Virus record (IMG/VR): IMGVR_UViG_3300028073_000008
Span: 64,001 to 128,000 of that record
Source: a virus
Strand: one strand, 5' to 3'
DNA: 64,000 bases
A program made the translations under genes and the position numbers. Shown in pieces: positions 12,150 to 27,271 of the stretch. Every line of letters starts with the position of its first letter. The stretch's first letter is position 1. Under the pieces are notes generated by a model, which saw only the letters and a program-made list of their open reading frames with translations, was not told where the DNA came from and did no database searches.

Positions 12150-12191
12150 AAAATTATTTATAGGGTGGTTCCCAGCGGAGTTAAATATCTG

Positions 12192-12851: not shown

Positions 12852-14082
12852 TGACGAGTGGTTGAACAACAAGATGCTCCAGATCACTAGATCGGGTCAG
12901 GAGCATCTGGTGAACGGAAGATATCCTACATATATCATTGACAACTATGACCAAATCAACAACTACCTAGATGACGCCGATTGGCTATTTGTACAGACAG
13001 CAGGCGACTACATATTAGATTTTGATCACTTATGGACAAAGATACACTCCATACCTGACTATGTAGGACTTGTAGGACATCTAATCTGGGACCAAGGTGA
13101 ATTTACTCCCTATCTAGAGGAACAGTGTTTTATTATAAACACCAAAGCTGTTAAACATCTAGATTTTAATTCATATATCGAAACAGGTAAAAACTTCATA
13201 AGAAGCGAAGATGACTTACATGAAGGTCATGCTCCTTTATGGTTAGCATTAGGAGATCGTACAGAGATACGACATGGTAAGTTTGGAACCAAGCTGATGT
13301 CAGATATCTTAGAGAACGATTACTCTGTAGTAAATTTTGATCAGTCGTGGAGATATTCTGACACGATCAAATTACCTATTAGACAAAATCCCTTGATAGA
13401 ACAGCTGCCTACTAGAGGATATCTCTATCCGTATATAAAAACAGTGGCTTTTTCAGAAGCTCTAAAGTCTCTCAAGAGCAGCGATTATCTAGATCCAGCA
13501 CAGCAGATAGCACTATCTGTGATCAACGAAACTATGAAGTTTAATTATATCAACGCCCTCTATTGGGATGATATCGTCAAAGACTACGACTGCGACTTAG
13601 TCATAGCACCTGCTAATGGGCTTATGGCTGAAACTTTGGCCTACTACAATCATGCCAAGAAGATTGTGATATACGATATTAATCCAAACAACATAGAATT
13701 CAAAAAATTTCTATATGAAAATTTTGATGGGCATGACTATGAACAATTTTATAAAAAATATGCCAAAGAAAGAAATCTCAAGATAGAACCCAATCATACT
13801 GTAGCGATAACCGATGAAATAAAATACCATAACAGAGAAGTGTTAGCCAATTGGGATAAGATCAAGAAGATAGAAAAGACGTATATCAGTGGTGATCTAT
13901 TTACGACATTGCCTTGGATACTTCCTCTTATAAGCAGCAAGACTATCATACACACTAGCACTATCTTAGGATACTATATCTTTTCCAATATACTACACGA
14001 CCAAGAAGAGATAGATATGCGTGTAAGTGAACTATCAGCAGTTATAGAATCCACTGGAGCCGTTTGGTTAGGAGAAAGATGA
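12808..14082 (+). CDS. Hypothetical protein (C-terminal half possibly methyltransferase-like Rossmann fold)
   Basis: 424 aa ORF; IVIYDIN motif. Confidence 0.6.
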   Translation: MAKKVSFITVRCCTDDEWLNNKMLQITRSGQEHLVNGRYPTYIIDNYDQINNYLDDADWLFVQTAGDYILDFDHLWTKIHSIPDYVGLVGHLIWDQGEFTPYLEEQCFIINTKAVKHLDFNSYIETGKNFIRSEDDLHEGHAPLWLALGDRTEIRHGKFGTKLMSDILENDYSVVNFDQSWRYSDTIKLPIRQNPLIEQLPTRGYLYPYIKTVAFSEALKSLKSSDYLDPAQQIALSVINETMKFNYINALYWDDIVKDYDCDLVIAPANGLMAETLAYYNHAKKIVIYDINPNNIEFKKFLYENFDGHDYEQFYKKYAKERNLKIEPNHTVAITDEIKYHNREVLANWDKIKKIEKTYISGDLFTTLPWILPLISSKTIIHTSTILGYYIFSNILHDQEEIDMRVSELSAVIESTGAVWLGER

Positions 14083-14762
14083 AGTACGAATACTATTACA
14101 ATCAGATGCCAGGGCAAGAACCTTGGCGCAACAATCTGATCTATACCAGCCTTATGAGCGAAGATGGTACTGTATTCGTACAATGGTACTATAATGATAC
14201 TGCCTATCACCAAGGGCAGAATCAGGTAGTGGATCCCGAATTGATGGAAGAAAAATGGCAACGTGAGCTAAAGTATCTACAGCTGATGCGAGCTTCGCAC
14301 AGTCATCTGGTGCCAGAAATACTAGACATCGATTACAAGTATAGAAAAATCTATCTGCGTGTCAATGGCAACGACTTTTGGCAGCGTAAGCTAGACGTTG
14401 GCAGTTTCGATGCTGTGTTGCCCAATTGGCGTGAACAGATGTTGGAAATCATAGACGCACACAAGAAGCTAAAATTACACAAATACAGCATGCATCCCAG
14501 CAGCTATTTCCTAGTCGACGGACAGTTGAAAAGCATCAACTACTTTTTTACCTATCACGACAGCGAACCTTATATCAGCATAGCCGACGTAGAAAGCCAT
14601 ATCTATTCTACGAGACAGGAACAGATGAAGAAAGTGTTAGCTGAAAGCACGATTAGCTGGAACGATCCGCAACCCTGGACCACTTTCGATTGGCTGTGTT
14701 GGAACAGCTTTAGATCAGAATATCCAGCAGATTTCGTAGAGGAAGCATTAAAACATGTTTAA
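14079..14762 (+). CDS. Hypothetical protein, possible kinase-like fold
   Basis: Paralog of 9582-10259 (WQRE, VPEILDID, HPSSYF...LKSINYF). Confidence 0.55.
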   Translation: MKYEYYYNQMPGQEPWRNNLIYTSLMSEDGTVFVQWYYNDTAYHQGQNQVVDPELMEEKWQRELKYLQLMRASHSHLVPEILDIDYKYRKIYLRVNGNDFWQRKLDVGSFDAVLPNWREQMLEIIDAHKKLKLHKYSMHPSSYFLVDGQLKSINYFFTYHDSEPYISIADVESHIYSTRQEQMKKVLAESTISWNDPQPWTTFDWLCWNSFRSEYPADFVEEALKHV

Positions 14763-15312
14763 ACTCATACGCTGGAACCCCGATCTAGATCTTTCGGACT
14801 TTTACAGGCGAGCAGCAGCCAAAGGTTTTGAAAATAATTCCAATCAGCAGATCATGATCGATTCTTTGAGCAAAGAAGAACGATGGGCCGCATGGATTTT
14901 ATATTATAATGATCTAGCTGCTGGTGCTGTAGCTGCGCATTCTTTTCCTGAGATGGGAGAAAATGCTTATAGGATCTGCGCCAGGACTTGTGTACTATCT
15001 GATGATCTGCCTTTACATCATTTGAGAACCAAATGGGGAATCATACGGCATCAAAACTACACCGCACAGTTTTTCATACCTGCCTGTATAGAATGGGCCG
15101 GTCGTGACAAAGATCTTTACATCACTAGCAATGAAAGCAAATCAGGTAGCCAAAGACTGGTACATGAAATTTTTTGTCCTTTATTAGCCAAAAGTGGTGT
15201 ACTTTCCAAAACAAAGGATATATACTATAGAGGTCTTACACAAACTGCTTGGCGTCTCGATGTTGAGCTGTTTTTTAAGCAACTAGATCAATTTGGTAGA
15301 TGGGTGTTGTAA
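14755..15312 (+). CDS. Hypothetical protein, possibly GNAT-like
   Basis: ORF coupled to upstream gene; fold guess weak. Confidence 0.55.
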   Translation: MFKLIRWNPDLDLSDFYRRAAAKGFENNSNQQIMIDSLSKEERWAAWILYYNDLAAGAVAAHSFPEMGENAYRICARTCVLSDDLPLHHLRTKWGIIRHQNYTAQFFIPACIEWAGRDKDLYITSNESKSGSQRLVHEIFCPLLAKSGVLSKTKDIYYRGLTQTAWRLDVELFFKQLDQFGRWVL

Positions 15313-15347
15313 AAATGCAACAATTTTACCAAAAATGAATCTAGGGG

Positions 15348-15376
15348 TTGACAACGAGACTAAATAAACTTATACT
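15348..15376 (+). promoter_or_regulatory. Sigma70-type promoter at head of tRNA region
   Basis: TTGACA-N17-TATACT; followed by 5' hairpin CTGTTA-GAAA-TAACAG (15385-15400). Confidence 0.85.
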
Positions 15377-15417
15377 TGGACTAACTGTTAGAAATAACAG
15401 AAAGGAAACTGAAGCAA

Positions 15418-15567
15418 ATGAAATCATCGACATTACATAGACAAATGATACAGAAAGCGCAATTGGGCGGCTTTAATGCCACCTATTGGCCCGTATGTTC
15501 AATTAGTCTCGCTAATGATCGTACACCAGAGCTACAGCCGGGGTCCACGAAGGATACGATGATGTAA
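15418..15567 (+). CDS. 49-aa leader peptide (MKSSTLHRQMIQKAQLGGFNATYWPVCSISLANDRTPELQPGSTKDTMM), putative attenuator leader
   Basis: AAGGA SD at 15402-15406; all 20 amino acids; lies between the promoter and a terminator; not in the ORF track. Confidence 0.7.
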   Translation: MKSSTLHRQMIQKAQLGGFNATYWPVCSISLANDRTPELQPGSTKDTMM

Positions 15568-15603
15568 CACAAATTACACATCAAGAATTCAAAGGACCCC
15601 AGG
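15538..15603 (+). promoter_or_regulatory. Putative antiterminator hairpin
   Basis: GGGGTCC (15540-46) complements GGACCCC (15594-600); inner helix GATGATGTAA/TTACACATC. Confidence 0.65.
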
Positions 15604-15628
15604 ATTAAAAACCCTGGGGTTTTTGTTT
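15594..15628 (+). terminator. Intrinsic terminator (attenuator)
   Basis: ACCCCAGG-9nt-CCTGGGGT followed by TTTTGTTT. Confidence 0.85.
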
Positions 15629-15642
15629 ATAAGGAATGAAGA

Positions 15643-15831
15643 ATGGAATGGAAATACGAAAACATCGATCATAGCAAGCTCAATGATCGTATCGTCGAGC
15701 AAGCATATCATGGAACGCTTCCATCTGTTTTAAACGAGGAAAGTGTTCAGCGTATGATCGCTGACAAGATTGAAAGAGCAAAACAGGAAAGAAACTGCTT
15801 AGTTAAGCTAGGTTACTTTACTGAGAACTAA
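15643..15831 (+). CDS. Small hypothetical protein
   Basis: AAGGA SD; 62 aa. Confidence 0.6.
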   Translation: MEWKYENIDHSKLNDRIVEQAYHGTLPSVLNEESVQRMIADKIERAKQERNCLVKLGYFTEN

Positions 15832-15840
15832 AGTGTGTAT

Positions 15841-16064
15841 AGGGAACGCGGCCCTGCTGGCACTATAAACATCGGCTATTAACGTGGGCGGCCTGGGGGA
15901 TGAGAAGCCTGTGGCGGAAACGCAGGTGGTAAAAACCCAGTGTAGTTAAACACTCTCTCTTGCCTTTGAAACAGGCATGACAGCATAGCGGAGAGTGCTT
16001 AACTACCCACACCTACCCTTCTCCCCCTGACGGATAAAACGCATAGCGGCTGGAATAGGTGTGG
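15841..16064 (+). ncRNA. Unassigned structured RNA (multiple hairpins)
   Basis: GC-rich non-coding; helices 15893-97/15936-40, 15942-57/15991-16006, 16007-15/16056-64. Confidence 0.55.
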
Positions 16065-16074
16065 TACATAATTT

Positions 16075-16160
16075 GGAGGCGTGTGCCGAGCAGCGAAGGC
16101 AGCGGTCTGTAAAACCGTGACATAGAAACAGCGTAGGTGCGAGTCCTACCGCCTCCACCA
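16075..16160 (+). tRNA. tRNA-Tyr(GTA)
   Basis: Cloverleaf, gcggt-CT-GTA-AA-accgt, long V arm, ACCA. Confidence 0.92.
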
Positions 16161-16188
16161 TATTCACGCTAAATATTAGGCAAGGAGA

Positions 16189-16626
16189 ATGCCTATGATA
16201 GCTACTAAATTTACTACGACTAACAATGATTCTAATTTTACAACCATCGACGAGTTCAGTGGGTGGTTAAGGGATCTTGTAGGAATAGAATATTTTAAAG
16301 AACTGACTTATATTAGGTCGGATGCGATCATAGACGGAATTGCTACTCCTGTAGGTAGTTATTATTGGGAAGCAGAAACAAAGAGTGCGATTTATATGGT
16401 CTTTCATCGAGATCTGCTTGACGCTAAATCCTTCCAATTAAATTACCTTTCTAATGATATAGCACGTTCTGTAGAGCAGGCCGTCAAAGAACACGGTTGG
16501 TCTATTAAGATGGAATCACTATCAGCAGATCCTGATCCGGAAGTTAGCAATTTCCAAATCATAGATCATCCTACAAACGTAGAAAACATACGCCCTAGCA
16601 GAAGAACAGAAATTAGCGGCCCTTAA
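16189..16626 (+). CDS. Hypothetical protein
   Basis: AAGGAG SD, TAAATA upstream; 3' end overlaps tRNA-Arg. Confidence 0.7.
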   Translation: MPMIATKFTTTNNDSNFTTIDEFSGWLRDLVGIEYFKELTYIRSDAIIDGIATPVGSYYWEAETKSAIYMVFHRDLLDAKSFQLNYLSNDIARSVEQAVKEHGWSIKMESLSADPDPEVSNFQIIDHPTNVENIRPSRRTEISGP

Positions 16627-16694
16627 CTCAGCTGGACCAGAGTGCTTGTCTTCGAAACAAGAAGTCGGGAGTTCGAATCTCTCAGGGCCGGCCA
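16617..16694 (+). tRNA. tRNA-Arg(TCG)
   Basis: cttgt-CT-TCG-AA-acaag; GTTCGAATC; GCCA. Confidence 0.92.
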
Positions 16695-16700
16695 ATCATT

Positions 16701-16774
16701 ATCGGACTGATGTAACGGCAGCATGACGGTCTCCAAAACCGTTCGTTGGGGTTCAAATCCCTAGTCCGGTGCCA
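16701..16774 (+). tRNA. tRNA-Trp(CCA)
   Basis: acggt-CT-CCA-AA-accgt; GCCA. Confidence 0.92.
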
Positions 16775-16777
16775 TTT

Positions 16778-16855
16778 ACCACTTTAGCTCAACTGGATAA
16801 GAGCACAACCTTGCGAAGGTTGAGGTTAGGGGTTCGAGTCCCTTAAGTGGTGCCA
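16778..16855 (+). tRNA. tRNA-Arg(GCG)
   Basis: caacc-TT-GCG-AA-ggttg; acceptor ACCACTT/AAGTGGT; GCCA. Confidence 0.9.
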
Positions 16856-17268
16856 AAGATGTCTGGATGTGAAGGTTTAACTGTAACATTTATGACTTTG
16901 CTGACAAATTTAAAATGTCGGCTCAACGTATCAAATATTTCGATGTTAAGTGCTTGACCTGCTCGGCTATAACTGTTACTGCCTATAGCACCATAGTAAT
17001 CTATGTCAAGACCTTTGCGTCGACCATAGTCAGGAAATACACCACAAAGAAAGAGACATTCGTCTCCTAAGCTCTTAGCATCATGTGAGTTTTTTATCCT
17101 ATGATAAGTTTCTATGAAACTATCTTCGGGCATCCAGTTTGGACGATCGATATGGCTGGCGAGCAACATGACTACATATTGCTCGACGAACAACGGCAGC
17201 TCATACCCGTAACTATCTTTAGTTTGGTTAATGAGCAGCTTGAATGCTGAAACGTATTCATCGCTCAT
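16843..17268 (-). CDS. Hypothetical protein antisense within tRNA array
   Basis: Start MSDEYVSAF 5 nt after TAAATA; LGDECLFLCGVFP...YY. Confidence 0.7.
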   Translation of the reverse strand: MSDEYVSAFKLLINQTKDSYGYELPLFVEQYVVMLLASHIDRPNWMPEDSFIETYHRIKNSHDAKSLGDECLFLCGVFPDYGRRKGLDIDYYGAIGSNSYSRAGQALNIEIFDTLSRHFKFVSKVINVTVKPSHPDIFGTT

Positions 17269-17286
17269 AATAATATTTATTTCAGA

Positions 17287-17360
17287 GGTGTCTTTAGTGT
17301 AGTGGTAGCAAAGCTGACTGTGAATCAGCAGGCGAGGGTTCGATTCCCCAAGGCACCCCA
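17287..17360 (+). tRNA. tRNA-His(GTG), canonical G-1:C73 type
   Basis: G-1 + GTGTCTT/AAGGCAC-C-CCA; gctga-CT-GTG-AA-tcagc. Confidence 0.9.
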
Positions 17361-17365
17361 TTTTA

Positions 17366-17520
17366 AGGGATAGACGATAGTTTAGAGTCCCTGCCAGTCT
17401 AGGCACAGTGGGGTTGACTGTGTTGACACTATAGTATGACTGAAGCCGGTATGTTAAACTTGACTATTCGAGACAATCTAGCGAGTCCTCCCAGGAGGAT
17501 AGTTAGGCGCCCGACTTTTA
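17366..17520 (+). ncRNA. Unassigned structured spacer RNA
   Basis: Hairpins AGGGA/TCCCT, GCACAGT/ACTGTGT, TCCTC/GAGGA; no credible ORF. Confidence 0.4.
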
Positions 17521-17521
17521 T

Positions 17522-17599
17522 CTGTGTGTAATGTCAGCCCGGGAGACGGCCTGGTTTGGAGCCAGGAGGCCGTAGGTTCAAATCCTACCACACAGACCA
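17522..17599 (+). tRNA. tRNA-Pro(TGG)
   Basis: cctgg-TT-TGG-AG-ccagg; ACCA. Confidence 0.9.
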
Positions 17600-17604
17600 A
17601 ATAT

Positions 17605-17680
17605 GCCAGTTTAGCTGATGTGGTCATAGCGGTGGTCTGAAGAACCATTGAACTAGGTTCGATTCCTAGAGCTGGCACCA
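17605..17680 (+). tRNA. tRNA-Phe(GAA)
   Basis: gtggt-CT-GAA-GA-accat; ACCA. Confidence 0.92.
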
Positions 17681-17690
17681 AATTTTTTAG

Positions 17691-17718
17691 TTGACACGTT
17701 TTTTAGATGTGCTATATT
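17691..17718 (+). promoter_or_regulatory. Sigma70-type promoter (internal to tRNA array)
   Basis: TTGACA-N16-TATATT with extended TG. Confidence 0.65.
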
Positions 17719-17735
17719 AGTATCATAACTGGCTA

Positions 17736-17810
17736 GGGCGTGTAGCTTAAAGGTGAAGCCGGCCGCTCATAACGGTCTTAGTGTGTGTTCGAGTCACACC
17801 GCGCCCACCA
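17736..17810 (+). tRNA. tRNA-Ile2(CAT) (lysidine type)
   Basis: GGCCGCTCATAACGGT anticodon arm typical of proteobacterial Ile2; ACCA. Confidence 0.8.
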
Positions 17811-17825
17811 GTTATTAAAGTTTTT

Positions 17826-17924
17826 GCCCCTGTAGCTTAATGGTAAAGAAGCGAGCTTATACCTCGCCAAAGCACAGGCCAGATAAGCCTGAGTGTGCAG
17901 GTTCGAGTCCTGCCAGGGGCACCA
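17826..17924 (+). tRNA. tRNA-Ile(TAT) with abnormally long variable region
   Basis: gcgag-CT-TAT-AC-ctcgc; ~29-nt V region; perfect T arm and acceptor; ACCA. Confidence 0.8.
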
Positions 17925-17929
17925 TATGC

Positions 17930-18005
17930 GGGCGTATAACTCAGTCGGTAGAGTAGCTGACTCTTAATCAGTTTGTCGTAGGTTCGATCCCTACTGCGCC
18001 TACCA
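17930..18005 (+). tRNA. tRNA-Lys(CTT)
   Basis: gctga-CT-CTT-AA-tcagt; ACCA. Confidence 0.92.
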
Positions 18006-18010
18006 AGTAT

Positions 18011-18086
18011 GCCGTCGTAGTGTTAGTGGCTAGCACGACTGTTTGTGGAGCAGTAGGAGTTGGATCGAAACCAACCGCCGGTACCA
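18011..18086 (+). tRNA. tRNA-His(GTG), no G-1, A73 (alphaproteobacterial type)
   Basis: actgt-TT-GTG-GA-gcagt; starts GCCG preceded by T; ends A-CCA. Confidence 0.8.
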
Positions 18087-18091
18087 TTTAA

Positions 18092-18186
18092 GCACTAGCC
18101 GTAAGGCCGGCGATAAGAAGGAAGCACGAGCATAGCTGTGTTTGCTTGGTCGGTGGATTGGAACGACTCACTCTTTTCACTAGTGC
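18092..18186 (+). ncRNA. Unassigned structured spacer RNA
   Basis: Closing stem GCACTAG/CTAGTGC with internal hairpins (GCC-GTAA-GGC; AAGCAC...GTGTTT). Confidence 0.45.
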
Positions 18187-18191
18187 CCTTT

Positions 18192-18269
18192 GCCCCTGTG
18201 GACAAATTGGTAAAGTCATCTCTCTCAAAAGGAGAAGTTCTCTCAGTTCGAATCTGAGCAGGGGTACCA
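18192..18269 (+). tRNA. tRNA-Leu(CAA), short variable arm
   Basis: tctct-CT-CAA-AA-ggaga; ACCA. Confidence 0.88.
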
Positions 18270-18284
18270 CTTATAAATAGACTG

Positions 18285-19772
18285 ATGAAAGGTCTTATTT
18301 TTAATATTTTGGGTTCACCGACCCGAACGCTAGGCGCATATCGTATAGCTCATTGTCTCAGAGAAGAAGGTTGGGACATCGAAGTTATCGACTTCTGCGA
18401 AGTTTGGGAGTTAGATGAATTACAAGAGTTAGCAAAATCCCGGATCGACAAAGACACTGTCTTTCTAGGATTTAGTTTTCTTTTCAGCAACATGTCTGAA
18501 AGATTTGAAAACTATATCAAATGGTTGAAAGTTACTTTCCCAGATGTATTGTTGATTTCAGGAGGACAAGTAGCTGCTCAGTTTGATACTAGTTCTTTTG
18601 ATTTACATATAAAAGGTTTCGGTGAACTAGCACTGTTAGAATTCCTTAGATGGTACAAAGGCAACGGACCTAGACCGAGATTTGATTTGTTATCAAAAGG
18701 GTGTAAGCTCATAGATGCTAACAAACAGTATCCGGCATATCCAATGAAGAGTCTCATGGTCAAGTATGAAGATAGAGATTTCATAGACTCAAACGAATGG
18801 TTGACTATAGAGTTTGCTCGAGGTTGTAAATTTAAATGTGACTTCTGTAACTTTCCAATCTTAGGAGTCAAGGGCGACTATAGCAGAGATGCCGAAGACG
18901 CTAGGATACAATTACAAGACAGCTATGATAGATTCGGAGTATCCAACTATCTCGTATCAGATGAAACATTTAATGACCGAACTGAAAAGATCAGCAAGTT
19001 CGCTGATGTTGTAGAACAGCTTTCATTCCGACCTTGGTTCTCAGGATTCGTCAGGGCAGATTTATTGATATCTCGTCCTAGAGATAGAGAAGAACTGCTT
19101 AGGATGAATTTCCTAGGACAGTATTATGGTATAGAAAGTTTCAACAGAGATGCTGCCAGGATAGTTGGCAAAGGAATGGATCCTGAAAAGATCAAACAAG
19201 GGTTGATAGATATAAAAAATTATTATCATTCAAATGGTACAAAATTGTATCGAGGATCTATTAGTTTGATCATAGGGTTAGCAAAAGAAAATAGAGAAAG
19301 CCTAGACAATACTATTAGATGGTTGACAGAGAATTGGAGTGGCGAATCATTCAGTCCGTTTGTATTAGAAGTGCCTATAGGTTCGTTCGATACAAAATCT
19401 TCGATAAGTTCAAACTATCAATCATATGGTTATAGATTGATGAAAGATTCTGATGTAAAACGCAGCGCAAACTTGAATGTCGGGTATGTTAGGAGAGAAA
19501 CAGCTCTTAGTGAAGACTGTCTAAAATGGGAGCATGACGATCTTAACATAGTAGAAGCTACCCAGATACAGGATGAATGGTTAGAAGTTAGAGATAATCC
19601 TAACAATAAATTCACTGTAAACTGTTTTAGTTTAAGCGATGTCGGTAGACACTTACCTATATCTGAAAAATTAAAACTGCCTCAAAAGGCAATCGACATG
19701 AGTACAGATTGGAATCATCCAGATTTCAAAGAACTGATGGCGAATTATAAGTTCAAAAAATTATCTTTGTGA
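18285..19772 (+). CDS. B12-binding-domain radical SAM protein (class B-like)
   Basis: N-terminal cobalamin-binding-like domain (LGAYRIA...ISGG...GFGE); ARGCKFKCDFC; DETFN; GIESF. Confidence 0.85.
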   Translation: MKGLIFNILGSPTRTLGAYRIAHCLREEGWDIEVIDFCEVWELDELQELAKSRIDKDTVFLGFSFLFSNMSERFENYIKWLKVTFPDVLLISGGQVAAQFDTSSFDLHIKGFGELALLEFLRWYKGNGPRPRFDLLSKGCKLIDANKQYPAYPMKSLMVKYEDRDFIDSNEWLTIEFARGCKFKCDFCNFPILGVKGDYSRDAEDARIQLQDSYDRFGVSNYLVSDETFNDRTEKISKFADVVEQLSFRPWFSGFVRADLLISRPRDREELLRMNFLGQYYGIESFNRDAARIVGKGMDPEKIKQGLIDIKNYYHSNGTKLYRGSISLIIGLAKENRESLDNTIRWLTENWSGESFSPFVLEVPIGSFDTKSSISSNYQSYGYRLMKDSDVKRSANLNVGYVRRETALSEDCLKWEHDDLNIVEATQIQDEWLEVRDNPNNKFTVNCFSLSDVGRHLPISEKLKLPQKAIDMSTDWNHPDFKELMANYKFKKLSL

Positions 19773-19801
19773 TTGACAGCAGTCAGTTAATGTAGTACAA
19801 T
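19773..19801 (+). promoter_or_regulatory. Sigma70-type promoter
   Basis: TTGACA-N17-TACAAT. Confidence 0.8.
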
Positions 19802-19813
19802 AATCAAACTTAG

Positions 19814-19891
19814 GGACAGGTGCCAGAGAGGTCCAATGGAACAGTCTGCAAAACTGTAAAGCCGTGGGTTCAAATCCCACCCTGTCCTCCA
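19814..19891 (+). tRNA. tRNA-Cys(GCA)
   Basis: acagt-CT-GCA-AA-actgt; U73-CCA. Confidence 0.92.
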
Positions 19892-19918
19892 CGTTGTTTG
19901 ACAATCAAATCAGTTAAT

Positions 19919-19993
19919 GCTCCGGTCGTCTATCGGTCAGGACGCTGCCCTTTCAAGGCGGAAAGAGGGGTTCGACTCCCCTTCGGAGTACCA
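19919..19993 (+). tRNA. tRNA-Glu(TTC)
   Basis: ctgcc-CT-TTC-AA-ggcgg; ACCA. Confidence 0.92.
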
Positions 19994-19999
19994 TTTAAT

Positions 20000-20075
20000 G
20001 CGGGCGTAGCTCAGTTGGTAGAGCATTACCTTGCCAAGGTAAATGTCGTCGGTTCGAACCCGATCGCCCGCTCCA
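20000..20075 (+). tRNA. tRNA-Gly(GCC)
   Basis: ttacc-TT-GCC-AA-ggtaa; TCCA. Confidence 0.95.
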
Positions 20076-20130
20076 ATTTTTTAAAGGAGGAAACTATCAT
20101 GGGAGATGATGGTAAATCTGGTAAACGTTT

Positions 20131-20206
20131 GGGCCCTTAGCTCAGTAGGTAGAGCAGCGGACTTTTAATCCGTTGGTCGTGAGTTCGAATCTCACAGGGC
20201 CCACCA
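20131..20206 (+). tRNA. tRNA-Lys(TTT)
   Basis: gcgga-CT-TTT-AA-tccgt; ACCA. Confidence 0.95.
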
Positions 20207-20210
20207 TTAC

Positions 20211-20297
20211 CATATTGAAATATACTGTAGCGGGTTCGCAAGTATGAGTCGCATTCTAAAGAGTGTCCTTGAACTGAATATAGTGTATTTCAATATG
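20211..20297 (+). ncRNA. Unassigned long-stem RNA
   Basis: 19-bp closing helix (20211-29/20279-97) containing two G-U pairs. Confidence 0.5.
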
Positions 20298-20302
20298 TTA
20301 AT

Positions 20303-20378
20303 GGCAGTATAGCATAGCGGCTAATGCGGCACCTTCATACGGTGTATATCGTAGGTTCGAGTCCTACTACTGCTACCA
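20303..20378 (+). tRNA. tRNA-Met(CAT), elongator
   Basis: gcacc-TT-CAT-AC-ggtgt; ACCA. Confidence 0.85.
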
Positions 20379-20387
20379 TAAAAATTC

Positions 20388-20463
20388 GGGCCAGTAGCTC
20401 ATCTGGGAGAGCGCCTCGTTTGCACCGAGGAGGTAGCGGGTTCAAGTCCTGTCTGGTCCACCA
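20388..20463 (+). tRNA. tRNA-Ala(TGC)
   Basis: G3:U70; cctcg-TT-TGC-AC-cgagg. Confidence 0.93.
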
Positions 20464-20469
20464 TGTTAT

Positions 20470-20544
20470 GGCTCGTTCATATAGTGGCTATTATGCCTGC
20501 CTGTCTAGCAGGACATAGGGGTTCGATTCCCCTACGAGTCGCCA
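20470..20544 (+). tRNA. tRNA-Asp(GTC)
   Basis: cctgc-CT-GTC-TA-gcagg; GCCA. Confidence 0.92.
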
Positions 20545-20551
20545 ACTCTAT

Positions 20552-20627
20552 TCCGGAGTAGCACAGAGGTAGTTGCAGCGGACTGTTAATCCGCGTGTCG
20601 TTGGTTCGATCCCAACCTCCGGAGCCA
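20552..20627 (+). tRNA. tRNA-Asn(GTT)
   Basis: gcgga-CT-GTT-AA-tccgc; GCCA. Confidence 0.93.
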
Positions 20628-20630
20628 AGT

Positions 20631-20845
20631 TTTGAGAGTGTCAGCAAGAGAAAGACACGCTGGTTAGGTTTCTTCGAAGGACCGACCCAGTAGAAGGTGG
20701 CGGGTTCGATGCCCGGCGGATCGGAAGATCCGTGTACAAGGTGGCGTACTATCTGGTCCGGTATCCCGAGTGACGTACCGAGTCCCGCTAGCTAATCCGG
20801 AGAAGGGTGAATGGTAGCAATAACGATGGTGCTACAACTCTCAAA
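20631..20845 (+). ncRNA. Unassigned ~215-nt multibranch structured RNA
   Basis: Closing TTTGAGAGT/ACTCTCAAA; internal helices GCGGG/CCCGC, CGGATC-GGAA-GATCCG, CGGTA/TACCG; GC-rich in AT-rich genome. Confidence 0.6.
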
Positions 20846-20853
20846 TTCATTAT

Positions 20854-20928
20854 TGGGGAATCGTCTAATCGGTAGGACACCTGACTTTGACTCAGGCAGT
20901 ATTGGTTCGAGTCCAGTTTCCCCAGCCA
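20854..20928 (+). tRNA. tRNA-Gln(TTG)
   Basis: cctga-CT-TTG-AC-tcagg; GCCA. Confidence 0.92.
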
Positions 20929-20929
20929 C

Positions 20930-21004
20930 ACCGGAGTAGCTCAGAGGTAGAGCAGCGGCCCGATAAGCCGTTGGTCGTTGGTTCAATTCCAACCTTCGGT
21001 ACCA
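20930..21004 (+). tRNA. tRNA-Ile(GAT) (C33 instead of U33)
   Basis: gcggc-CC-GAT-AA-gccgt; ACCA. Confidence 0.88.
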
Positions 21005-21012
21005 GAATACGG

Positions 21013-21041
21013 TTGACACAGTCAACAAAAGACTACATAAT
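21013..21041 (+). promoter_or_regulatory. Sigma70-type promoter
   Basis: TTGACA-N17-CATAAT. Confidence 0.75.
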
Positions 21042-21050
21042 ATAAACAAT

Positions 21051-21133
21051 GCCCCGATGGTGGAATTGGTAGACACGCTGGTCTTAGAAGCCAGTACTTC
21101 GGTGTGCGAGTTCGAGTCTCGCTTGGGGCACCA
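21051..21133 (+). tRNA. tRNA-Leu(TAG)
   Basis: ctggt-CT-TAG-AA-gccag; V arm; ACCA. Confidence 0.93.
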
Positions 21134-21276
21134 TTAGTTAGTAGCATAGCTCGTCGGCCTACGATCAAGGCTAACCTTGTCCGAAGCGGGAAGCCTATGA
21201 TACTAGTAACTGGTCTGTGTAACAGATCAACAATAGGTAGCAAGAGGATAGTAAACTATGCTACTAACTAATGGTG
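21129..21276 (+). ncRNA. Unassigned RNA closed by a perfect 21-bp inverted repeat
   Basis: CACCATTAGTTAGTAGCATAG (21129-49) / CTATGCTACTAACTAATGGTG (21256-76). Confidence 0.55.
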
Positions 21277-21284
21277 AAAGTTTA

Positions 21285-21359
21285 GGGTGATTAGCTCAGT
21301 GGTAGAGCGCCTCGTTTACACCGAGGATGTCGGGAGTTCGACCCTCTCATCACCCACCA
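21285..21359 (+). tRNA. tRNA-Val(TAC)
   Basis: cctcg-TT-TAC-AC-cgagg; ACCA. Confidence 0.95.
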
Positions 21360-21364
21360 ATTAT

Positions 21365-21454
21365 GGAAGTGTGGTCGAGTCTGGTTTATGGCAACGGTCT
21401 TGAAAACCGTCGAACCGAAAGGTTCCGTGAGTTCGAATCTCACCGCTTCCGCCA
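21365..21454 (+). tRNA. tRNA-Ser(TGA)
   Basis: acggt-CT-TGA-AA-accgt; long V arm; GCCA. Confidence 0.95.
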
Positions 21455-21468
21455 TATTAAATAGTATC

Positions 21469-22257
21469 ATGAAAGCTATAAAGATACTGATCTGCGGACT
21501 GCCAGGAGCAGGTAAAACAACACTGGCTAAAGCATTACAATCTAGATTAGGTGATACCGAACACCTAGAAGCAGATGCTGTTAGAAAACGGTTTGATGAT
21601 TGGGACTTCAGTGAAGAAGGACGAATCAGGCAAAGCTTCAGGATGAAACTGCTGTCAGATGAAAGCGAAGCACGTTACGTGATCGCCGACTTCATAGCAC
21701 CTCTAGAAGCTACTAGAAAAAACTATTCAGCAGATTGGACCATTTGGGTTGACACTATCCGCGAAGGCAGATATGAAGATACCAACAAGATGTTCCAAGA
21801 ACCAGACATATATGATTTCCGTATCACTGAACAAGATGCTGAAAAATGGGCAGCGTTTATCTCTGATCATATATTGGCCGATCGCAGACGTCCTGTATGG
21901 AATAATCGCAAAGAAACTGTACAGATGTTAGGTCGTTGGCAACCATGGCATGATGGGCATCGTGCTCTATTCGAAAGAGCGTTGGCCAAGACTGGTCAAG
22001 TCTGTATCATGGTGCGTGATTGCCAAGGTTGGAATGATAGTAATCCGTTCAACTTCTACGATGTGGCTAGATTTATCAAGAGAGATCTAGATCCTTTGTA
22101 TCAAGGTCAATTCCAAATCGTGCTTGTGCCTAATATCGTGAACATCACGTATGGTAGGGATGTAGGTTACAAGATCGAACAAGAACATTTTGATCAATCT
22201 ATCACTGATATCTCTGCTACAAAGATAAGAGAATCGTTGAATATCAAGAAGGATTGA
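21469..22257 (+). CDS. Adenylylsulfate-kinase-like P-loop domain fused to HIGH-type nucleotidyltransferase domain
   Basis: GLPGAGKTT...DAVRK..DFSEEGR; C-terminal GRWQPWHDGH...ISATKIR; start corrected to avoid tRNA overlap. Confidence 0.75.
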   Translation: MKAIKILICGLPGAGKTTLAKALQSRLGDTEHLEADAVRKRFDDWDFSEEGRIRQSFRMKLLSDESEARYVIADFIAPLEATRKNYSADWTIWVDTIREGRYEDTNKMFQEPDIYDFRITEQDAEKWAAFISDHILADRRRPVWNNRKETVQMLGRWQPWHDGHRALFERALAKTGQVCIMVRDCQGWNDSNPFNFYDVARFIKRDLDPLYQGQFQIVLVPNIVNITYGRDVGYKIEQEHFDQSITDISATKIRESLNIKKD

Positions 22258-22258
22258 T

Positions 22259-22900
22259 ATGAGTAGCGTTGTTGTTACAGGTGAAAAGAACATAGCGTTC
22301 GTACACAATCCCAAAGTGGCTGGTATGAGTATCAAGAGTTGGTTGATATCTAACAGAAAGAACAGCACGTATCAAGAATTTGATCTCAAAGTAACGTTCA
22401 ATGATCTAAAAAACACAGTAGACAATTTGCCATTTAGCTTTAGCATAGTTAGAAACCCTTGGGACCGCATGGTCAGTGGTTACTATGAACTGCGTAGATG
22501 GTATGATAATCCAGGAAAAGCCAGCCAAGACAATTTAAATTTTGTCCGAGACTATTTTAATAGATCTCCGTTTCCATCTTTCGATCAGTTTATGAACGAA
22601 TTTCCACAAGACGAAATGTGGTCTGTGTTATATCCTATGCTGTCTCCATATCCTCCTACATGGCCTAAAGGTGCCGTGACACAGAAGCAGTATGTTGACG
22701 GTGTAAATTTGATATTGCGATATGAAAATATCGAAGAAGATTTCAAACAGATACAAAAGATCTATGATTGTGATGTGCCATTGCCCATGATCAATACTTC
22801 CGAAAATAATGACTATAGATCATACTACAACGATAGGACTAAAGCCATAGTAGCTGCGTTCTTCCAAGAAGACATAGACACATTCAGATACAGTTTCTAA
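22259..22900 (+). CDS. Sulfotransferase family 2 protein
   Basis: FVHNPKVAGMS (5'-PSB) and VRNPWDRMVSGY (3'-PB). Confidence 0.85.
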   Translation: MSSVVVTGEKNIAFVHNPKVAGMSIKSWLISNRKNSTYQEFDLKVTFNDLKNTVDNLPFSFSIVRNPWDRMVSGYYELRRWYDNPGKASQDNLNFVRDYFNRSPFPSFDQFMNEFPQDEMWSVLYPMLSPYPPTWPKGAVTQKQYVDGVNLILRYENIEEDFKQIQKIYDCDVPLPMINTSENNDYRSYYNDRTKAIVAAFFQEDIDTFRYSF

Positions 22901-22961
22901 AATCTTATACCACGATAAGTATCATTGTTCCGCAGTGCGGTAAAAAACAAGGAGGACTATC

Positions 22962-23381
22962 ATGAGTATCATGGACTTTATCCATAAGATAGAACAAGTC
23001 AGTGAAACTGCTGCTAGAAGACTGTCTCATCGTGCTTTACACGCGGCCGCAACTGTCTATAGTGATGCTAAAGAATTAGCCGACAAGTCGGCCAAGGACG
23101 TAGACAAAGCCAAGGCCAAACTAGAAGATGCCATGAAGAAGGCATATCAACACGCCGATGCTGCCCATTCAGCCGCAGTCGACGCATATGAAAAAGCCAA
23201 TGCTGAAGCACAAAGATTGGCACAAGAAGTCGAAGACGCTGCTTTCGAAGCAGCAAATAAACTGAATGCTCTTATCAATGCTGGGTTACAACCTATTCCC
23301 GGCAAAGAAGAGAAAAAAGAAGAACCAGAACCTTATTCTAGAGCAAATGCTGTAGACAAAGATTCTGTTTCAGTGTTATAA
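22962..23381 (+). CDS. Ala/Lys-rich helical hypothetical protein
   Basis: AGGAGG SD; 139 aa. Confidence 0.75.
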   Translation: MSIMDFIHKIEQVSETAARRLSHRALHAAATVYSDAKELADKSAKDVDKAKAKLEDAMKKAYQHADAAHSAAVDAYEKANAEAQRLAQEVEDAAFEAANKLNALINAGLQPIPGKEEKKEEPEPYSRANAVDKDSVSVL

Positions 23382-23390
23382 TAGAACATT

Positions 23391-23482
23391 GGTGAGGTGG
23401 ATGAGAGGCTTAAATCAGCAGTTTGCTAAACTGTCGTAGGCAGAAATGTCTACCGCGGGTTCGAATCCCGCCCTCACCGCCA
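23391..23482 (+). tRNA. tRNA-Ser(GCT)
   Basis: gcagt-TT-GCT-AA-actgt; long V arm; GCCA. Confidence 0.95.
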
Positions 23483-23505
23483 AGTTCAAATATAAGTAAG
23501 AATAC

Positions 23506-23581
23506 GCTGCTTTAGCTCAGCCGGTAGAGCAACTGCCTTGTAAGCAGTAGGTCGTCAGTTCGAATCCGACAAGCAGCACCA
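23506..23581 (+). tRNA. tRNA-Thr(TGT)
   Basis: actgc-CT-TGT-AA-gcagt; ACCA. Confidence 0.95.
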
Positions 23582-23595
23582 TAATAAGGCAATAG

Positions 23596-24213
23596 ATGAA
23601 ATACGCTTATATCAATCCAACTGTGATAGCTGTAGACGACCTGCCAGCAGATGTCTTTGCCTATCTCAAGAACATGGTAGATACAGCGCATCAAATGACT
23701 CAGTTCAACGATGCTGGAGATCAATCCATTAGCATTAGAGGCGGTCAACAGATACAGCTATTGCCTAACGACTTTGGTCAGGATGTCACTGTATTGAAAA
23801 GTTTCGTGGAACAACGATGCTATGATTACATGGATACACTGACTAGACAATCGGGTAAACCTGATCTAGTCAATCTTGAACCAGAACTTGTGAGTGCCTG
23901 GACTATCAGACAAACAGCTGGTAACTATCAGGCCTTACATACACATAACGCACATATCAGCGGCAACATCTACATAGATGTTCCAGACCTAGATCCAGGA
24001 AGTCAATCTTCAGATGCCAATCTAGAATTTAGATTTCCTGTGGTCAAGGATCCCAGCAAGTTTACTTTTATAGATCAATTGAGATTTTCTCCGCGACCCA
24101 TGATGATGGTCATGTTTCCTAGCTATCTTCCACATACAGTATACCCGTGGAATGGACAAGGACACAGAACTATTTTGGCATGGGACGTGAAATTAAAGCC
24201 AAAAATGGCTTGA
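23596..24213 (+). CDS. Putative 2OG-Fe(II) oxygenase (phage TIGR02466-like)
   Basis: W...HTH...ISG..Y...FPSYLPHTVYP...R. Confidence 0.8.
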   Translation: MKYAYINPTVIAVDDLPADVFAYLKNMVDTAHQMTQFNDAGDQSISIRGGQQIQLLPNDFGQDVTVLKSFVEQRCYDYMDTLTRQSGKPDLVNLEPELVSAWTIRQTAGNYQALHTHNAHISGNIYIDVPDLDPGSQSSDANLEFRFPVVKDPSKFTFIDQLRFSPRPMMMVMFPSYLPHTVYPWNGQGHRTILAWDVKLKPKMA

Positions 24214-24238
24214 CAGCATACACAAAATATCGTATTAT
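24210..24238 (+). promoter_or_regulatory. Sigma70-type promoter
   Basis: TTGACA-N17-TATTAT. Confidence 0.75.
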
Positions 24239-24242
24239 AGAG

Positions 24243-24510
24243 TTGTTGCGTAGGAAACTGCGCAGCCGGCGAGGTAAAGGGTAGATGAGGATAGACAATC
24301 GTTCGGCTTCATGCCGAGCTCCAATACTGGCAAACAGTCTTGAAAACTGTCCGTGCTTGTGTGTTCCGATACCAAAATAGAATGTCTGTTGATAGTCGGA
24401 AATAAGCAGGCCTCTGTGCTATGTACATTGAGGTTTGTCAAAGGCGTTATCGTTGATCCGCCCCTGTCAGTTGTCCGGTCTATTACTTGACCTTTTACCA
24501 ACCCGTTATT
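24243..24510 (+). ncRNA. Unassigned ~270-nt structured RNA/leader
   Basis: GGTAAAGGGT/ACCTTTTACC and ATAGAC/GTCTAT long-range helices, several hairpins; directly after promoter. Confidence 0.55.
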
Positions 24511-24527
24511 AATCAAAGGAAAAAGAA

Positions 24528-25100
24528 ATGAACATCACTCTACGCAAGGCAAACGCACTACAAACAGCAATCAATGATGCTATCCGTAGCATCAAGGTCG
24601 AAACTTCGATCGAACTGAACGAATTCCAAGATGTAGCAGCAGAATTGAAAGCTGCCAATGACCAACTGTTTGCCAGCGATGCTCGTAGACAGAAGTTGCT
24701 GTTGGCTCTTTACAACATCCGCGGTCTAGTAGCCGCAGCCAACGCTACTAATGACATCGATCTCAACCTAACCAAGGCTGCGTTCATCGACAAGCGCATC
24801 GGCCAGTTGGAAGAAATGGCTAACCAAAAGCCAGTGACTGATGTCGCTGTGCTCACAGGCAAGCTGGAAAAGATCAAGAATGACAAGGGCGAACATCGTA
24901 GCCGCATTTACGGCTACAGCGATACTGTCGCTACTTCTGTGCTCAGCCAGGAACAGATCGACAAGGTCAAGGCTGAGATCTTGAATCTCAAGAAGCAGAA
25001 GCAAAAGATCAACGATTCTATCTTGGAAGCTAACATCAAGACAGAAATTCCGTTGAGCGACGATGTCGCAGAAACATTGAAAGTAGAAAATCTACTGTAA
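24528..25100 (+). CDS. Coiled-coil hypothetical protein
   Basis: AAGGA SD; 190 aa. Confidence 0.8.
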   Translation: MNITLRKANALQTAINDAIRSIKVETSIELNEFQDVAAELKAANDQLFASDARRQKLLLALYNIRGLVAAANATNDIDLNLTKAAFIDKRIGQLEEMANQKPVTDVAVLTGKLEKIKNDKGEHRSRIYGYSDTVATSVLSQEQIDKVKAEILNLKKQKQKINDSILEANIKTEIPLSDDVAETLKVENLL

Positions 25101-25106
25101 GTTTAT

Positions 25107-25181
25107 AGCAGGGTAGAGAAGCAGTAACTCACCAGGTTCATACCCTGGAGATCGGTGGTGCGATTCCACCCCCTGCAACCA
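25107..25181 (+). tRNA. tRNA-Met(CAT), initiator-like
   Basis: A1:A72 mismatch; ccagg-TT-CAT-AC-cctgg; ACCA. Confidence 0.75.
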
Positions 25182-25185
25182 GTTT

Positions 25186-25262
25186 CGGAGTGTAGCGCAG
25201 CCTGGTAGCGCAACTGGTTTGGGACCAGTGGGTCGGGAGTTCGAATCTCTCCACTCCGACCA
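25186..25262 (+). tRNA. tRNA-Pro(TGG)
   Basis: actgg-TT-TGG-GA-ccagt; ACCA. Confidence 0.95.
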
Positions 25263-25277
25263 TTTATTGAGGTATAT

Positions 25278-25625
25278 ATGAGTGACGGCGGCAAAGGTAG
25301 TAAACCAAGACCATTTAGTGTTGATCAAAAGACATTCGATAATAACTGGGATAATATCTTTAACAGAAAAAAGAAAACAGACGCAGAACTGTTTGATGAA
25401 GCTGTCATGAAAGATGAATACTACGATTTGGAGAATGAAATGCAGATGCCTGTAGAAGAAAACGCAGATGAAATTGGTAAATGTGGTTGTGGTCGCAGCC
25501 CCACTGGTAAGTGTATCGGTTGGCATGGACTGACCGAAGAAGACTATCGAGTCAAGCTAGCAGAATGGGAAGAAAAGAAACTAAGCGATCGCAAAGTCGC
25601 AGCCAGCTATATCAAAGAAGATTAA
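25278..25625 (+). CDS. Protein with CDGSH-type iron-sulfur/zinc finger
   Basis: CGCGRSPTGKCIGWH. Confidence 0.75.
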   Translation: MSDGGKGSKPRPFSVDQKTFDNNWDNIFNRKKKTDAELFDEAVMKDEYYDLENEMQMPVEENADEIGKCGCGRSPTGKCIGWHGLTEEDYRVKLAEWEEKKLSDRKVAASYIKED

Positions 25626-25632
25626 TAAAAAT

Positions 25633-25708
25633 GCGGGTGTAACTCAGTTGGTAGAGTGATAGCCTTCCAAGCTATATGTCGCGAGTTCGAACCTCGTCGC
25701 CCGCTCCA
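25633..25708 (+). tRNA. tRNA-Gly(TCC)
   Basis: atagc-CT-TCC-AA-gctat; TCCA. Confidence 0.95.
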
Positions 25709-25719
25709 GGATTTTTTCT

Positions 25720-26289
25720 ATGATACCGGTCATCGATAGTAACGACATCTTTAAGACATATGATTTCAGTTCTGTCATAACACAACAGGATGTCGATCAG
25801 GCTATTTCTAGTATCGAGCGTGTCATAGCAGATGGTAACTATTTTGAAAATAGTCCCAAGTTCCAAACCAAAGAAAACATATTCCAAAGACCAGAATCCT
25901 GTTGGTTGAAGTTTCGTATGAGCTTTATATTCAGTGTGTTCATGTATCTAGGACGTGAAGCAAAGATATCAAATATGATGGCTTGGTCATTTATGACCAA
26001 TCTACACGGTGCCGAGGATCGAGATAAACTTTGGCATCATCATCACCATAAAACAAATACTAACATGCTCAGTGGCATAATGTATCTTCATATACCCGAC
26101 GATGTTACCAATCGGGATACCTGCGGAACAGAAATGGCTCCAAACGGTCTAGAATCAGATGACAGACTGTTTATTAGACCATATAATTATACTTGGTTGA
26201 TATATCCAAGCAGGATATGGCACCGCCCGGGAATAGTACAGAGTAACAACTATAGATTCGTATTAGCAGGAGATATCGAATACAGTTAA
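25720..26289 (+). CDS. Putative 2OG-Fe(II) oxygenase-like protein
   Basis: WHHH...LSGIMYL...YPSRIWHRP...R. Confidence 0.7.
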   Translation: MIPVIDSNDIFKTYDFSSVITQQDVDQAISSIERVIADGNYFENSPKFQTKENIFQRPESCWLKFRMSFIFSVFMYLGREAKISNMMAWSFMTNLHGAEDRDKLWHHHHHKTNTNMLSGIMYLHIPDDVTNRDTCGTEMAPNGLESDDRLFIRPYNYTWLIYPSRIWHRPGIVQSNNYRFVLAGDIEYS

Positions 26290-26295
26290 AAACAT

Positions 26296-26373
26296 CTGCC
26301 CGTAGCTCAGCCGGATTAGAGCAACAGCCTTCTAAGCTGTGGGTCGGGGGTTCGAATCCCTCCGGGCAGGCCA
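26296..26373 (+). tRNA. tRNA-Arg(TCT)
   Basis: acagc-CT-TCT-AA-gctgt; GCCA. Confidence 0.95.
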
Positions 26374-26376
26374 CTA

Positions 26377-26452
26377 CTCTCCGTAGTTCAACAGGATAGA
26401 ACAAGACACTCCTAAGGTTTAGATGGCTGTTCGAGTCAGCCCGGGGAGGCCA
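26377..26452 (+). tRNA. tRNA-Arg(CCT)
   Basis: CT-CCT-AA loop, weak anticodon stem; T arm and GCCA intact. Confidence 0.8.
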
Positions 26453-26455
26453 AAT

Positions 26456-26538
26456 GCGAGCGTGGAGAAATCGGTAAACTCAGGAGACTTAAAATCTCCC
26501 GCTTCGGCTTGTGGGTTCGAGTCCCACCGCTCGCACCA
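26456..26538 (+). tRNA. tRNA-Leu(TAA)
   Basis: ggaga-CT-TAA-AA-tctcc; ACCA. Confidence 0.93.
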
Positions 26539-26541
26539 AAG

Positions 26542-26615
26542 GCTCCTATAGTTAAGTGGTATAACACATCCTTGGTAAGGATGAATTACAAGTTCAATTC
26601 TTGTTGGGAGCACCA
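26542..26615 (+). tRNA. tRNA-Thr(GGT)
   Basis: catcc-TT-GGT-AA-ggatg; ACCA. Confidence 0.9.
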
Positions 26616-26690
26616 TCTTTATCTGTATGTTTTTAAAGGTATTTGTCCAAAATAAGTAATAAGTTGGCCTTTAAAAACATGGAGGTTATT

Positions 26691-27194
26691 ATGAGAAACA
26701 TAGCAATAGTCTGTGTTGCCCTGTTATTAGGTGGCTGTCAGACTACAACACAAGCAGCTAGACCCTACATGGAAGAAGCACATCGTATGGAGGGCATGGA
26801 TGCTAAAACTAATCGTAAAGAACTCAAGCATTATATGAATTCGGCCAGAACAGGCACCGTAGATCCTTTACATATTCCTTGGTGTGCTGGTTGGGCAAAT
26901 GCCGTATTACAGAATAATGGAGTACAAGGAACTCATAGTCTAATGGCTCGCAGTTTCTTGAAATGGGGTCATCCTACACATAATCCACAAGAAGGCGACA
27001 TCGTGGTTCTGCGTAGAGGTCGAGCCGAATGGAGTGGTCATGTGGGATTCTTCAAAGGATATGAAGTAGTCGATGGCGTCACTTATGTCAAGGTATTGGG
27101 AGGCAATACTGACAAGAGTGTCGCGATCGGATACTTTCCGACTAATTATGTCCTAGCATTTAGAGCACCAAATTATTCTCCCAAAATGAATTAG
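26691..27194 (+). CDS. TIGR02594-like NlpC/P60-CHAP cell-wall peptidase with lipoprotein signal
   Basis: GGAGG SD; LLLGGC lipobox; PWCAGWAN...GDIVVL...GHVGF...LGGN. Confidence 0.8.
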   Translation: MRNIAIVCVALLLGGCQTTTQAARPYMEEAHRMEGMDAKTNRKELKHYMNSARTGTVDPLHIPWCAGWANAVLQNNGVQGTHSLMARSFLKWGHPTHNPQEGDIVVLRRGRAEWSGHVGFFKGYEVVDGVTYVKVLGGNTDKSVAIGYFPTNYVLAFRAPNYSPKMN

Positions 27195-27270
27195 CCCTGG
27201 TGGCGGAATCGGTATACGCACTACGTTGAGGTCGTAGGTTTTGCGGGTTCGAATCCCGCCTAGGGCACCA
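27194..27270 (+). tRNA. tRNA-Leu(GAG), short variable arm
   Basis: ctacg-TT-GAG-GT-cgtag; 5-nt V region; ACCA. Confidence 0.88.
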
Positions 27271-27271
27271 C

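Follow-up and report, generated by a model that had tools for sequence, protein, structure and literature searches.

Two histidine tRNA genes of opposite identity classes are conserved together in a clade of river jumbo phages

We found that an uncultured river jumbo phage carries, within a single tRNA array, two tRNA-His(GUG) genes that belong to different identity classes, and that across the clade this pair is an old trait, under selection and kept in synteny. One gene (His#1) is of the canonical bacterial class, with an encoded extra 5' G (G-1) opposite C73. The other (His#2) is of the G-1-less class, with A73. On the best reading of these genes, the two tRNAs would each work with a histidyl-tRNA synthetase (HisRS) of a different class.

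The IMG/VR record of the phage (G000) has 101,649 bases, a GC content of ~40% and a completeness of ~29% (CheckV), which implies a genome near 350 kb. The window, which is the whole stretch of 64,000 nucleotides that was analysed, is the minus strand of this record. The phage is present in 20 riverine runs, and the region also appears in metatranscriptome assemblies. The part of the record beyond the window has genes for a family B DNA polymerase (PolB), a peptide deformylase, DnaJ and a ClpB-like ATPase (L147:4328-7030, L146:6238-9902). The features of the window that matter here are the following.

15348..15376, plus strand: sigma-70-like promoter match (11/12) upstream of the first tRNAs, from consensus comparison
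16075..27270, plus strand: tRNA array holding His#1 and His#2, with 35 Rfam-positive tRNAs
17287..17360, plus strand: tRNA-His(GUG) #1, canonical class (Rfam 50.0 bits, ARAGORN, conserved homologues)
17691..17718, plus strand: second sigma-70-like promoter match (11/12, with TG), a consensus match only
18011..18086, plus strand: tRNA-His(GUG) #2, G-1-less class (Rfam 44.4 bits, ARAGORN -ps90, fold, homologues)

All 35 tRNAs of the array lie on a single strand, each with an encoded CCA, and 33 of them were also called by ARAGORN. Genes for a radical SAM enzyme, a kinase-like protein, a sulfotransferase, 2OG-oxygenases and a CHAP protein are interspersed among them. The sub-array Tyr-Arg-Trp-Arg-His#1 lies downstream of the first promoter match, and the second match sits after tRNA-Phe and before the run Met, long tRNA, Lys(CUU), His#2 and Leu(CAA). 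Over window positions 10001-30000, the depth of metatranscriptome contigs from four river assemblies was 0-3 at 10.0-14.7 kb and 10-50+ from ~15.3 kb. Counted on assembled contigs only, this rise is a weak hint that fits a transcription start at the promoter-like site at 15348. Far higher depth peaks were seen at 20.0-20.7 kb and 24.0-24.7 kb.

In the array, a tRNA of 96-99 nt (window 17826-17924, Rfam 59.8 bits) has an extra 25-nt hairpin, which in the Rfam reading is a D-loop insert, with the anticodon loop CAGAUAA. An alternative register gives the anticodon UAU and a long variable arm, and a tRNA called by ARAGORN in L509, a related array, is an Ile(UAU) of 96 nt. Outside the array there is one weak tRNA-like match (window 35512-35619, 108 nt, 29.7 bits), and ARAGORN found no tmRNA in the 101 kb.

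Rfam confirmed the positions that the first-pass annotation had given for both histidine genes. The match for His#1 spans 17288-17357, with position 1 at 17288. G-1 at 17287 is thus opposite C73 at 17357, G1 pairs with C72, and CCA follows at 17358-60. The ARAGORN register is off by one base from that of Rfam, which was adopted because ARAGORN's would make His#1 the sole tRNA of the array without CCA. Position 37 is A, and the standard 5-pair T stem is absent, its 3' strand being one base short (4 bases). As in canonical bacterial tRNA-His (E. coli, T. thermophilus; PMC4357726), G-1:C73, G1:C72, an 8-pair acceptor helix in the predicted fold, GUG and the encoded CCA are all present, but the 8/4-like branch, the weak D stem and the 7-nt D-loop set His#1 apart.

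As for His#2, its Rfam score is lower than that of His#1 but above the gathering score of 29 (E is 6.8e-7 when the 12.3 kb array is searched and 1.7e-8 when the search covers 301 bases around the gene). ARAGORN missed the gene at default settings and found it with -ps90, and its minimum-energy fold is a clean cloverleaf with a 7/5 branch. No G-1 is encoded, position 18010 being T. The acceptor contains G1:U72, C2:G71, C3:G70 and a U5xC68 mismatch, and ends in A73 and CCA. The D-loop has 9 nt and ends in UA (U20a), the anticodon GUG is followed by G37, and position 54 is A. The mismatch, A54, A73 and the missing G-1 had all been listed in the first-pass annotation and were all seen. A pattern for the 3' half of G-1-less tRNA-His matched the window once and none of 100 shuffles.

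Identity between the two genes is 67%. They did not arise by recent duplication, since each resembles same-class genes of other genomes more than it does its partner; among the bacterial genes sampled, the nearest to His#2 is 75% identical. Among cultured phages, only Ochrobactrum phage vB_OspM_OC gave a useful match to His#2, with a tRNA-His that has A73 and no G-1 but U1:G72. No useful match came from searching cultured phages with two common G-1-less variants of uncultured origin.

The two identity systems of tRNA-His are a textbook example of recognition that has co-evolved and is mutually exclusive. A G-1-less system was reportedly described by Wang, in 2007, from a clade of Alphaproteobacteria. 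This clade unites Rhizobiales, Rhodobacterales, Caulobacterales and Hyphomonadaceae, and the G-1-less tRNA-His with its divergent HisRS is also found in most SAR11 (PMC3064791, PMC3937112). The conserved marks of the group are A73, G1:U72, C3:G70, a nine-base D-loop with U20a, and G37 (PMC3064791), with the anticodon and U72 as major identity elements (Yuan et al., PMC3064791). On the side of the enzyme, a Gln-to-Gly change in the motif-2 loop of HisRS has been described (Amrine 2014, PMC3937112). Orthogonality was found in vitro with Caulobacter HisRS on E. coli tRNA (PMC3064791), and inside Caulobacter the pair of HisRS and tRNA-His from E. coli works orthogonally when both parts are supplied (Ko 2013, PMC3875453).

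All the marks of Yuan et al. are present in His#2, which also matches Caulobacter-type tRNA-His in its GUG anticodon and lack of G-1. It differs from the Caulobacter-type genes in being phage-borne, in A54 and the 5:68 mismatch, and in having a gene of the opposite class alongside. The assignment of His#1 and His#2 to two orthogonal identity classes, as the first-pass annotation had it, is therefore borne out, His#1 being canonical and His#2 having every published G-1-less mark.

Among bacteria, surveyed at one genome per species with the pattern for the 3' half of the G-1-less class, matches fall overwhelmingly in Rhodobacterales, Hyphomicrobiales/Rhizobiales, Caulobacterales, Hyphomonadaceae and Pelagibacterales. 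G1 is universal in 104 bacterial G-1-less genes, C2:G71 is found in 104/104 and C3:G70 in 78/104 (75%). Most have a 9-nt D-loop (90/104, 87%), the loop ends in UA in 103/104 (99%), and T is the commonest base at -1 (74%). None of the 50 genomes with a G-1-less gene that were checked carries a true G-1:C73-CCA gene. Three pattern matches for G-1:C73 in bacterial genomes were taken as chance, as they have no pairing T stem, and a reversed-pattern control in the 50-genome check gave 1 match. In these 50 bacterial genomes the two classes are thus exclusive, as had been supposed.

The first-pass annotation had also tied the G-1-less type to the alphaproteobacterial clade. This stands for the overwhelming part of the matches, but not for all, as a G-1-less tRNA-His with G1:U72 and A73 was also found in MAGs of Blastocatellia, Bryobacterales (a complete chromosome) and Thermoanaerobaculia (L148, L157, L198). 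The HisS of these MAGs (L520, L518, L519) have a motif-2 loop without the Gln (RPGPGR, KPHPGR, KPDKGR). Since the G-1-less system also exists outside Alphaproteobacteria, the tRNA-His class alone does not name the host. In terms of other host clues, the porin-like protein, which had looked alphaproteobacterial at first pass, could be placed no more narrowly than as an outer-membrane barrel of phages and Pseudomonadota (2 weak matches in 401 genomes), and the phage promoters look sigma-70-like. Just after a signal-peptide outer-membrane barrel gene (34545-35222), the window encodes a 23-aa PqqA-like peptide (MWTKP...GFEITMY...NR; 35357-35428), and several radical SAM/SPASM genes lie within its positions 1-15 kb.

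Relatives of the array were located with a D-arm pattern in viral and metagenome collections and with a second, looser metagenome scan; a first, stricter metagenome scan gave no matches. PolB as an anchor gave more than 580 relatives, on contigs without the array. Two other probes were set aside: the radical SAM gene at 18285-19772 gave paralogues in the 1-15 kb island and not arrays, and the T-arm pattern GGATCGAAACC matched an unrelated phage group with G-1-type genes.

Both classes occur together in four diverged lineages, namely G000 (with L527 and L529 counted as the same phage), L514/L523/L524, L522 and L531. The order is the same in all four: Arg(UCG), Arg, His(G-1:C73), then Phe, then His(G-1-less), with other stretches between the last three. 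In L514 and L523, His#2 is 100% identical, with coding DNA ~70% identical to the window. More distant homologues of His#2 (95% identical in L524, ~93% in L531, 90% in L522 and 86% in the L501/L504 group) keep the D arm and the A54 T loop, with compensatory changes in the acceptor, anticodon and T stems. In an alignment of 15 sequences, where the invariance of the D arm is a product of the D-arm search itself, 99.0% of stem cells are paired, against 71.4% in shuffles (0/500), and both sides have changed in 15/21 pairs. The canonical gene behaves alike: 93.9% of stem cells are paired in the G-1 family (71.9% in shuffles), both sides have changed in 14/22 pairs, and G-1:C73 and G1:C72 are invariant in 9/9 homologues from relatives. 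His#1 and L522 have in common the 4-base T-stem strand that gives the 8/4-like branch.

Both genes are thus under selection, and the pair is conserved. As diverged relatives keep the same pair, both genes are apparently needed and neither is a dead copy. The synteny across four diverged lineages argues against a recent switch of host, which the first-pass annotation had offered as one explanation, or a relic. Its own alternative, that His#2 is a degenerate pseudogene, fails in view of the identical copy in a diverged relative, the covarying homologues and the recurrence of A54 in unrelated phage tRNA-His genes of both classes.

Some variants were observed among these loci. L531 has a third tRNA-His(GUG), with G1:U72 and G73 (L531:2872-2946), and elsewhere the D-arm family includes genes with U1:G72/A73, C1:G72/A73 or G1:U72/U73. 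The G-1:C73 genes at L524:2319-2395, L522:4850-4923 and L531:3035-3111 have in common the tandem acceptor mismatches U4.U69 and U5.U68.

Outside the clade, dual carriage is rare. A G-1:C73-CCA gene was found in 1/50 viral records with a G-1-less gene in an array and in 1/20 records of the D-arm family, that is, in 2/70 other phage records overall. The survey of co-occurrence in related phages that had been proposed at first pass thus finds the pair in the four lineages of the clade and seldom elsewhere. Single-class members of the wider family are of both kinds. Two phages that are ~92% complete, G035 (333 kb) and G504 (342 kb), with PolB 57-60% identical to that of G000, have only A73, G-1-less tRNA-His genes, and in the related arrays L433 and L437 the only tRNA-His is of the G-1:C73 type. 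The related array L414 has a single His gene, with C73 but T at -1.

We found no published description of both tRNA-His classes in one phage. A related report, in the part available to us, notes that tRNA clusters in alphaproteobacterial phages contain G-1-less tRNA-His genes with A73 or U73 and an 8/4 branch (Mukai 2017, PMC5389517). Their alphaproteobacterial-type ends are as in the window. His#2 is however 7/5 and lacks their 8-pair acceptor and 4-pair T stem, and the same part makes no mention of a G-1:C73 gene alongside them.

From the sequences, His#1 and His#2 would both be working histidine tRNAs, each built for a different HisRS class. The acceptor end of His#1, with the extra 5' G paired to C73 and with G1:C72, would suit the ordinary bacterial HisRS. 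The marks of His#2, namely GUG, U72, A73, the 9-nt D-loop with U20a and no G-1, would suit the divergent Caulobacter-type HisRS. Given that the published pairs are orthogonal, a cell with one enzyme should charge only one of the two tRNAs well, and since each tRNA keeps its own identity marks under selection, two enzymes are implied. The pair could then keep the His codons of the phage readable under either charging regime. We infer the charging, the processing of the 5' end and the source of the two enzymes from the genes themselves. The irregular T stem of His#1 and the one acceptor mismatch of His#2 speak against this reading, as do the 71% of the genome that is unseen and the megaphages described below, which meet the same problem with a HisRS of their own.

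As for where the two enzymes come from, we tentatively favour different hosts, because the wider phage family has single-class members of both kinds. In agreement with this, no phage HisRS gene was seen in the 101 kb. A host range across incompatible HisRS systems, as the first-pass annotation had suggested, fits the pattern at family level, and a phage-borne HisRS in the unseen 71% would explain it about as well. For both genes to be kept, however, four diverged lineages would have to go on using hosts from either side of the divide in HisRS. A host range of this kind is at least cross-order, which is unusual for phages.

The two regimes may instead meet in the same cell, where the host enzyme would charge one class and a HisRS encoded in the unseen 71% the other, which would give the phage a private histidine channel. 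We consider this somewhat doubtful, although it has a direct precedent. In 25 viral contigs, mostly of 400-600 kb, we found a mini-HisRS of 146-211 aa (L458:1474-2040, in G013; L459-L483 at ~6001-6560; also L362, L368 and L370). It consists of the catalytic core, with motifs 1-3 and without the insertion and anticodon-binding domains, and a tRNA-His nearly always lies within a few kb. In L459/L460, L461, L462 and L463, both tRNA-His classes are found around it. G013 is itself a dual carrier, a fragment (GC 58%) of a larger phage with PolB 50% identical to that of G000, and the 188-aa protein beside its two His genes aligns with the catalytic core of T. thermophilus HisRS, motifs 1-3 included. 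The motif-2 loop of the mini-HisRS (ERPQxGRYREF) keeps the Gln of enzymes that read G-1:C73, and in its place the Caulobacter type and SAR11 have Gly, the loops being EKPGPGR in the HisS of Brevundimonas, Microvirga and Tritonibacter and EKAGNAR in SAR11.

The megaphage module resembles the window in that both identity classes lie close together in a tRNA array. It differs in that the megaphages encode a G-1-type catalytic-core HisRS between the two His genes, and none was found in the window phage. PF13393 (HisRS) has no match in the 101 kb, from a record ~29% complete, and no homologue of the mini-HisRS was found in G000, in 15 clade contigs or in any clade locus examined. The array has no synthetase-like gene, and no HisRS-like gene lies near either His gene, whereas the megaphage gene adjoins tRNA-His. 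On the other hand, the near-complete G035 and G504, where HisRS was also not found, have no G-1 tRNA either, as a same-cell arrangement predicts.

In its more specific form, which strikes us as rather doubtful, the divergent HisRS of the host would charge the G-1-less tRNA and a phage HisRS of the catalytic-core type the G-1:C73 tRNA, as two insulated channels. The E. coli pair that functions in Caulobacter once both parts are given (PMC3875453) likewise puts two histidine charging systems in one cell without cross-talk, but that system is man-made with a suppressor anticodon, and both phage genes instead read His codons. If true, insulated channels would be a natural orthogonal synthetase/tRNA pair and would make phage translation partly independent of the host.

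Another possibility is that one tRNA decodes His and the other serves a role outside decoding, for example as a decoy for a tRNA-cutting defence or as an uncharged regulator. Only one class should be charged per host, yet both are under selection, and there are other tRNA-like oddities in the array. This is nevertheless improbable: the exact class marks are selected (G-1:C73 in 9/9, G1:U72 and A73 in the near homologues), which points to recognition by a synthetase, and no nuclease or partner gene was identified.

It is still less probable that the pair only raises the dosage of tRNA-His, with a single host HisRS charging both adequately. Caulobacter HisRS does tolerate the addition of G-1, at a 5-fold loss, and A73C, at a 3-fold loss, but U72C costs it 91-fold and the whole E. 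coli tRNA-His >250-fold, and loss of G-1 costs ordinary HisRS >100-fold (all PMC3064791). Dosage would also leave the two distinct, conserved identity sets unexplained.

That one copy is the decaying relic of a past host is very improbable and already largely refuted. The mismatch and lower Rfam score of His#2, and the short T stem and weak D stem of His#1, could be read as decay. However, both genes have covarying homologues, His#2 is 100% conserved between flanks that are ~70% identical, and L522 has the same short T stem as His#1. Lastly, there is hardly any case for a Thg1-like enzyme adding G-1 to His#2 after transcription for an ordinary HisRS to read: eukaryotic tRNA-His likewise has A73 and no encoded G-1, and Thg1 is sporadic in jumbo phages (PMC7824862), but Thg1 (PF04446) has no match in the 101 kb, and U72, G37 and the 9-nt D-loop belong with the Caulobacter-type marks and not with the eukaryotic ones.

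Our preferred reading thus remains that each tRNA serves its own HisRS class, with different hosts tentatively favoured as the source of the two enzymes. The genes are short, so that direct tests with purified enzymes are feasible, and the mini-HisRS is a natural minimal enzyme for the engineering of orthogonal pairs. Phages that keep both classes are natural test cases of how far phage tRNA sets track the synthetases of their hosts. If they do, the tRNA-His class would be a mark for host prediction. A second question that dual-class phages raise is whether phages may have private charging systems.
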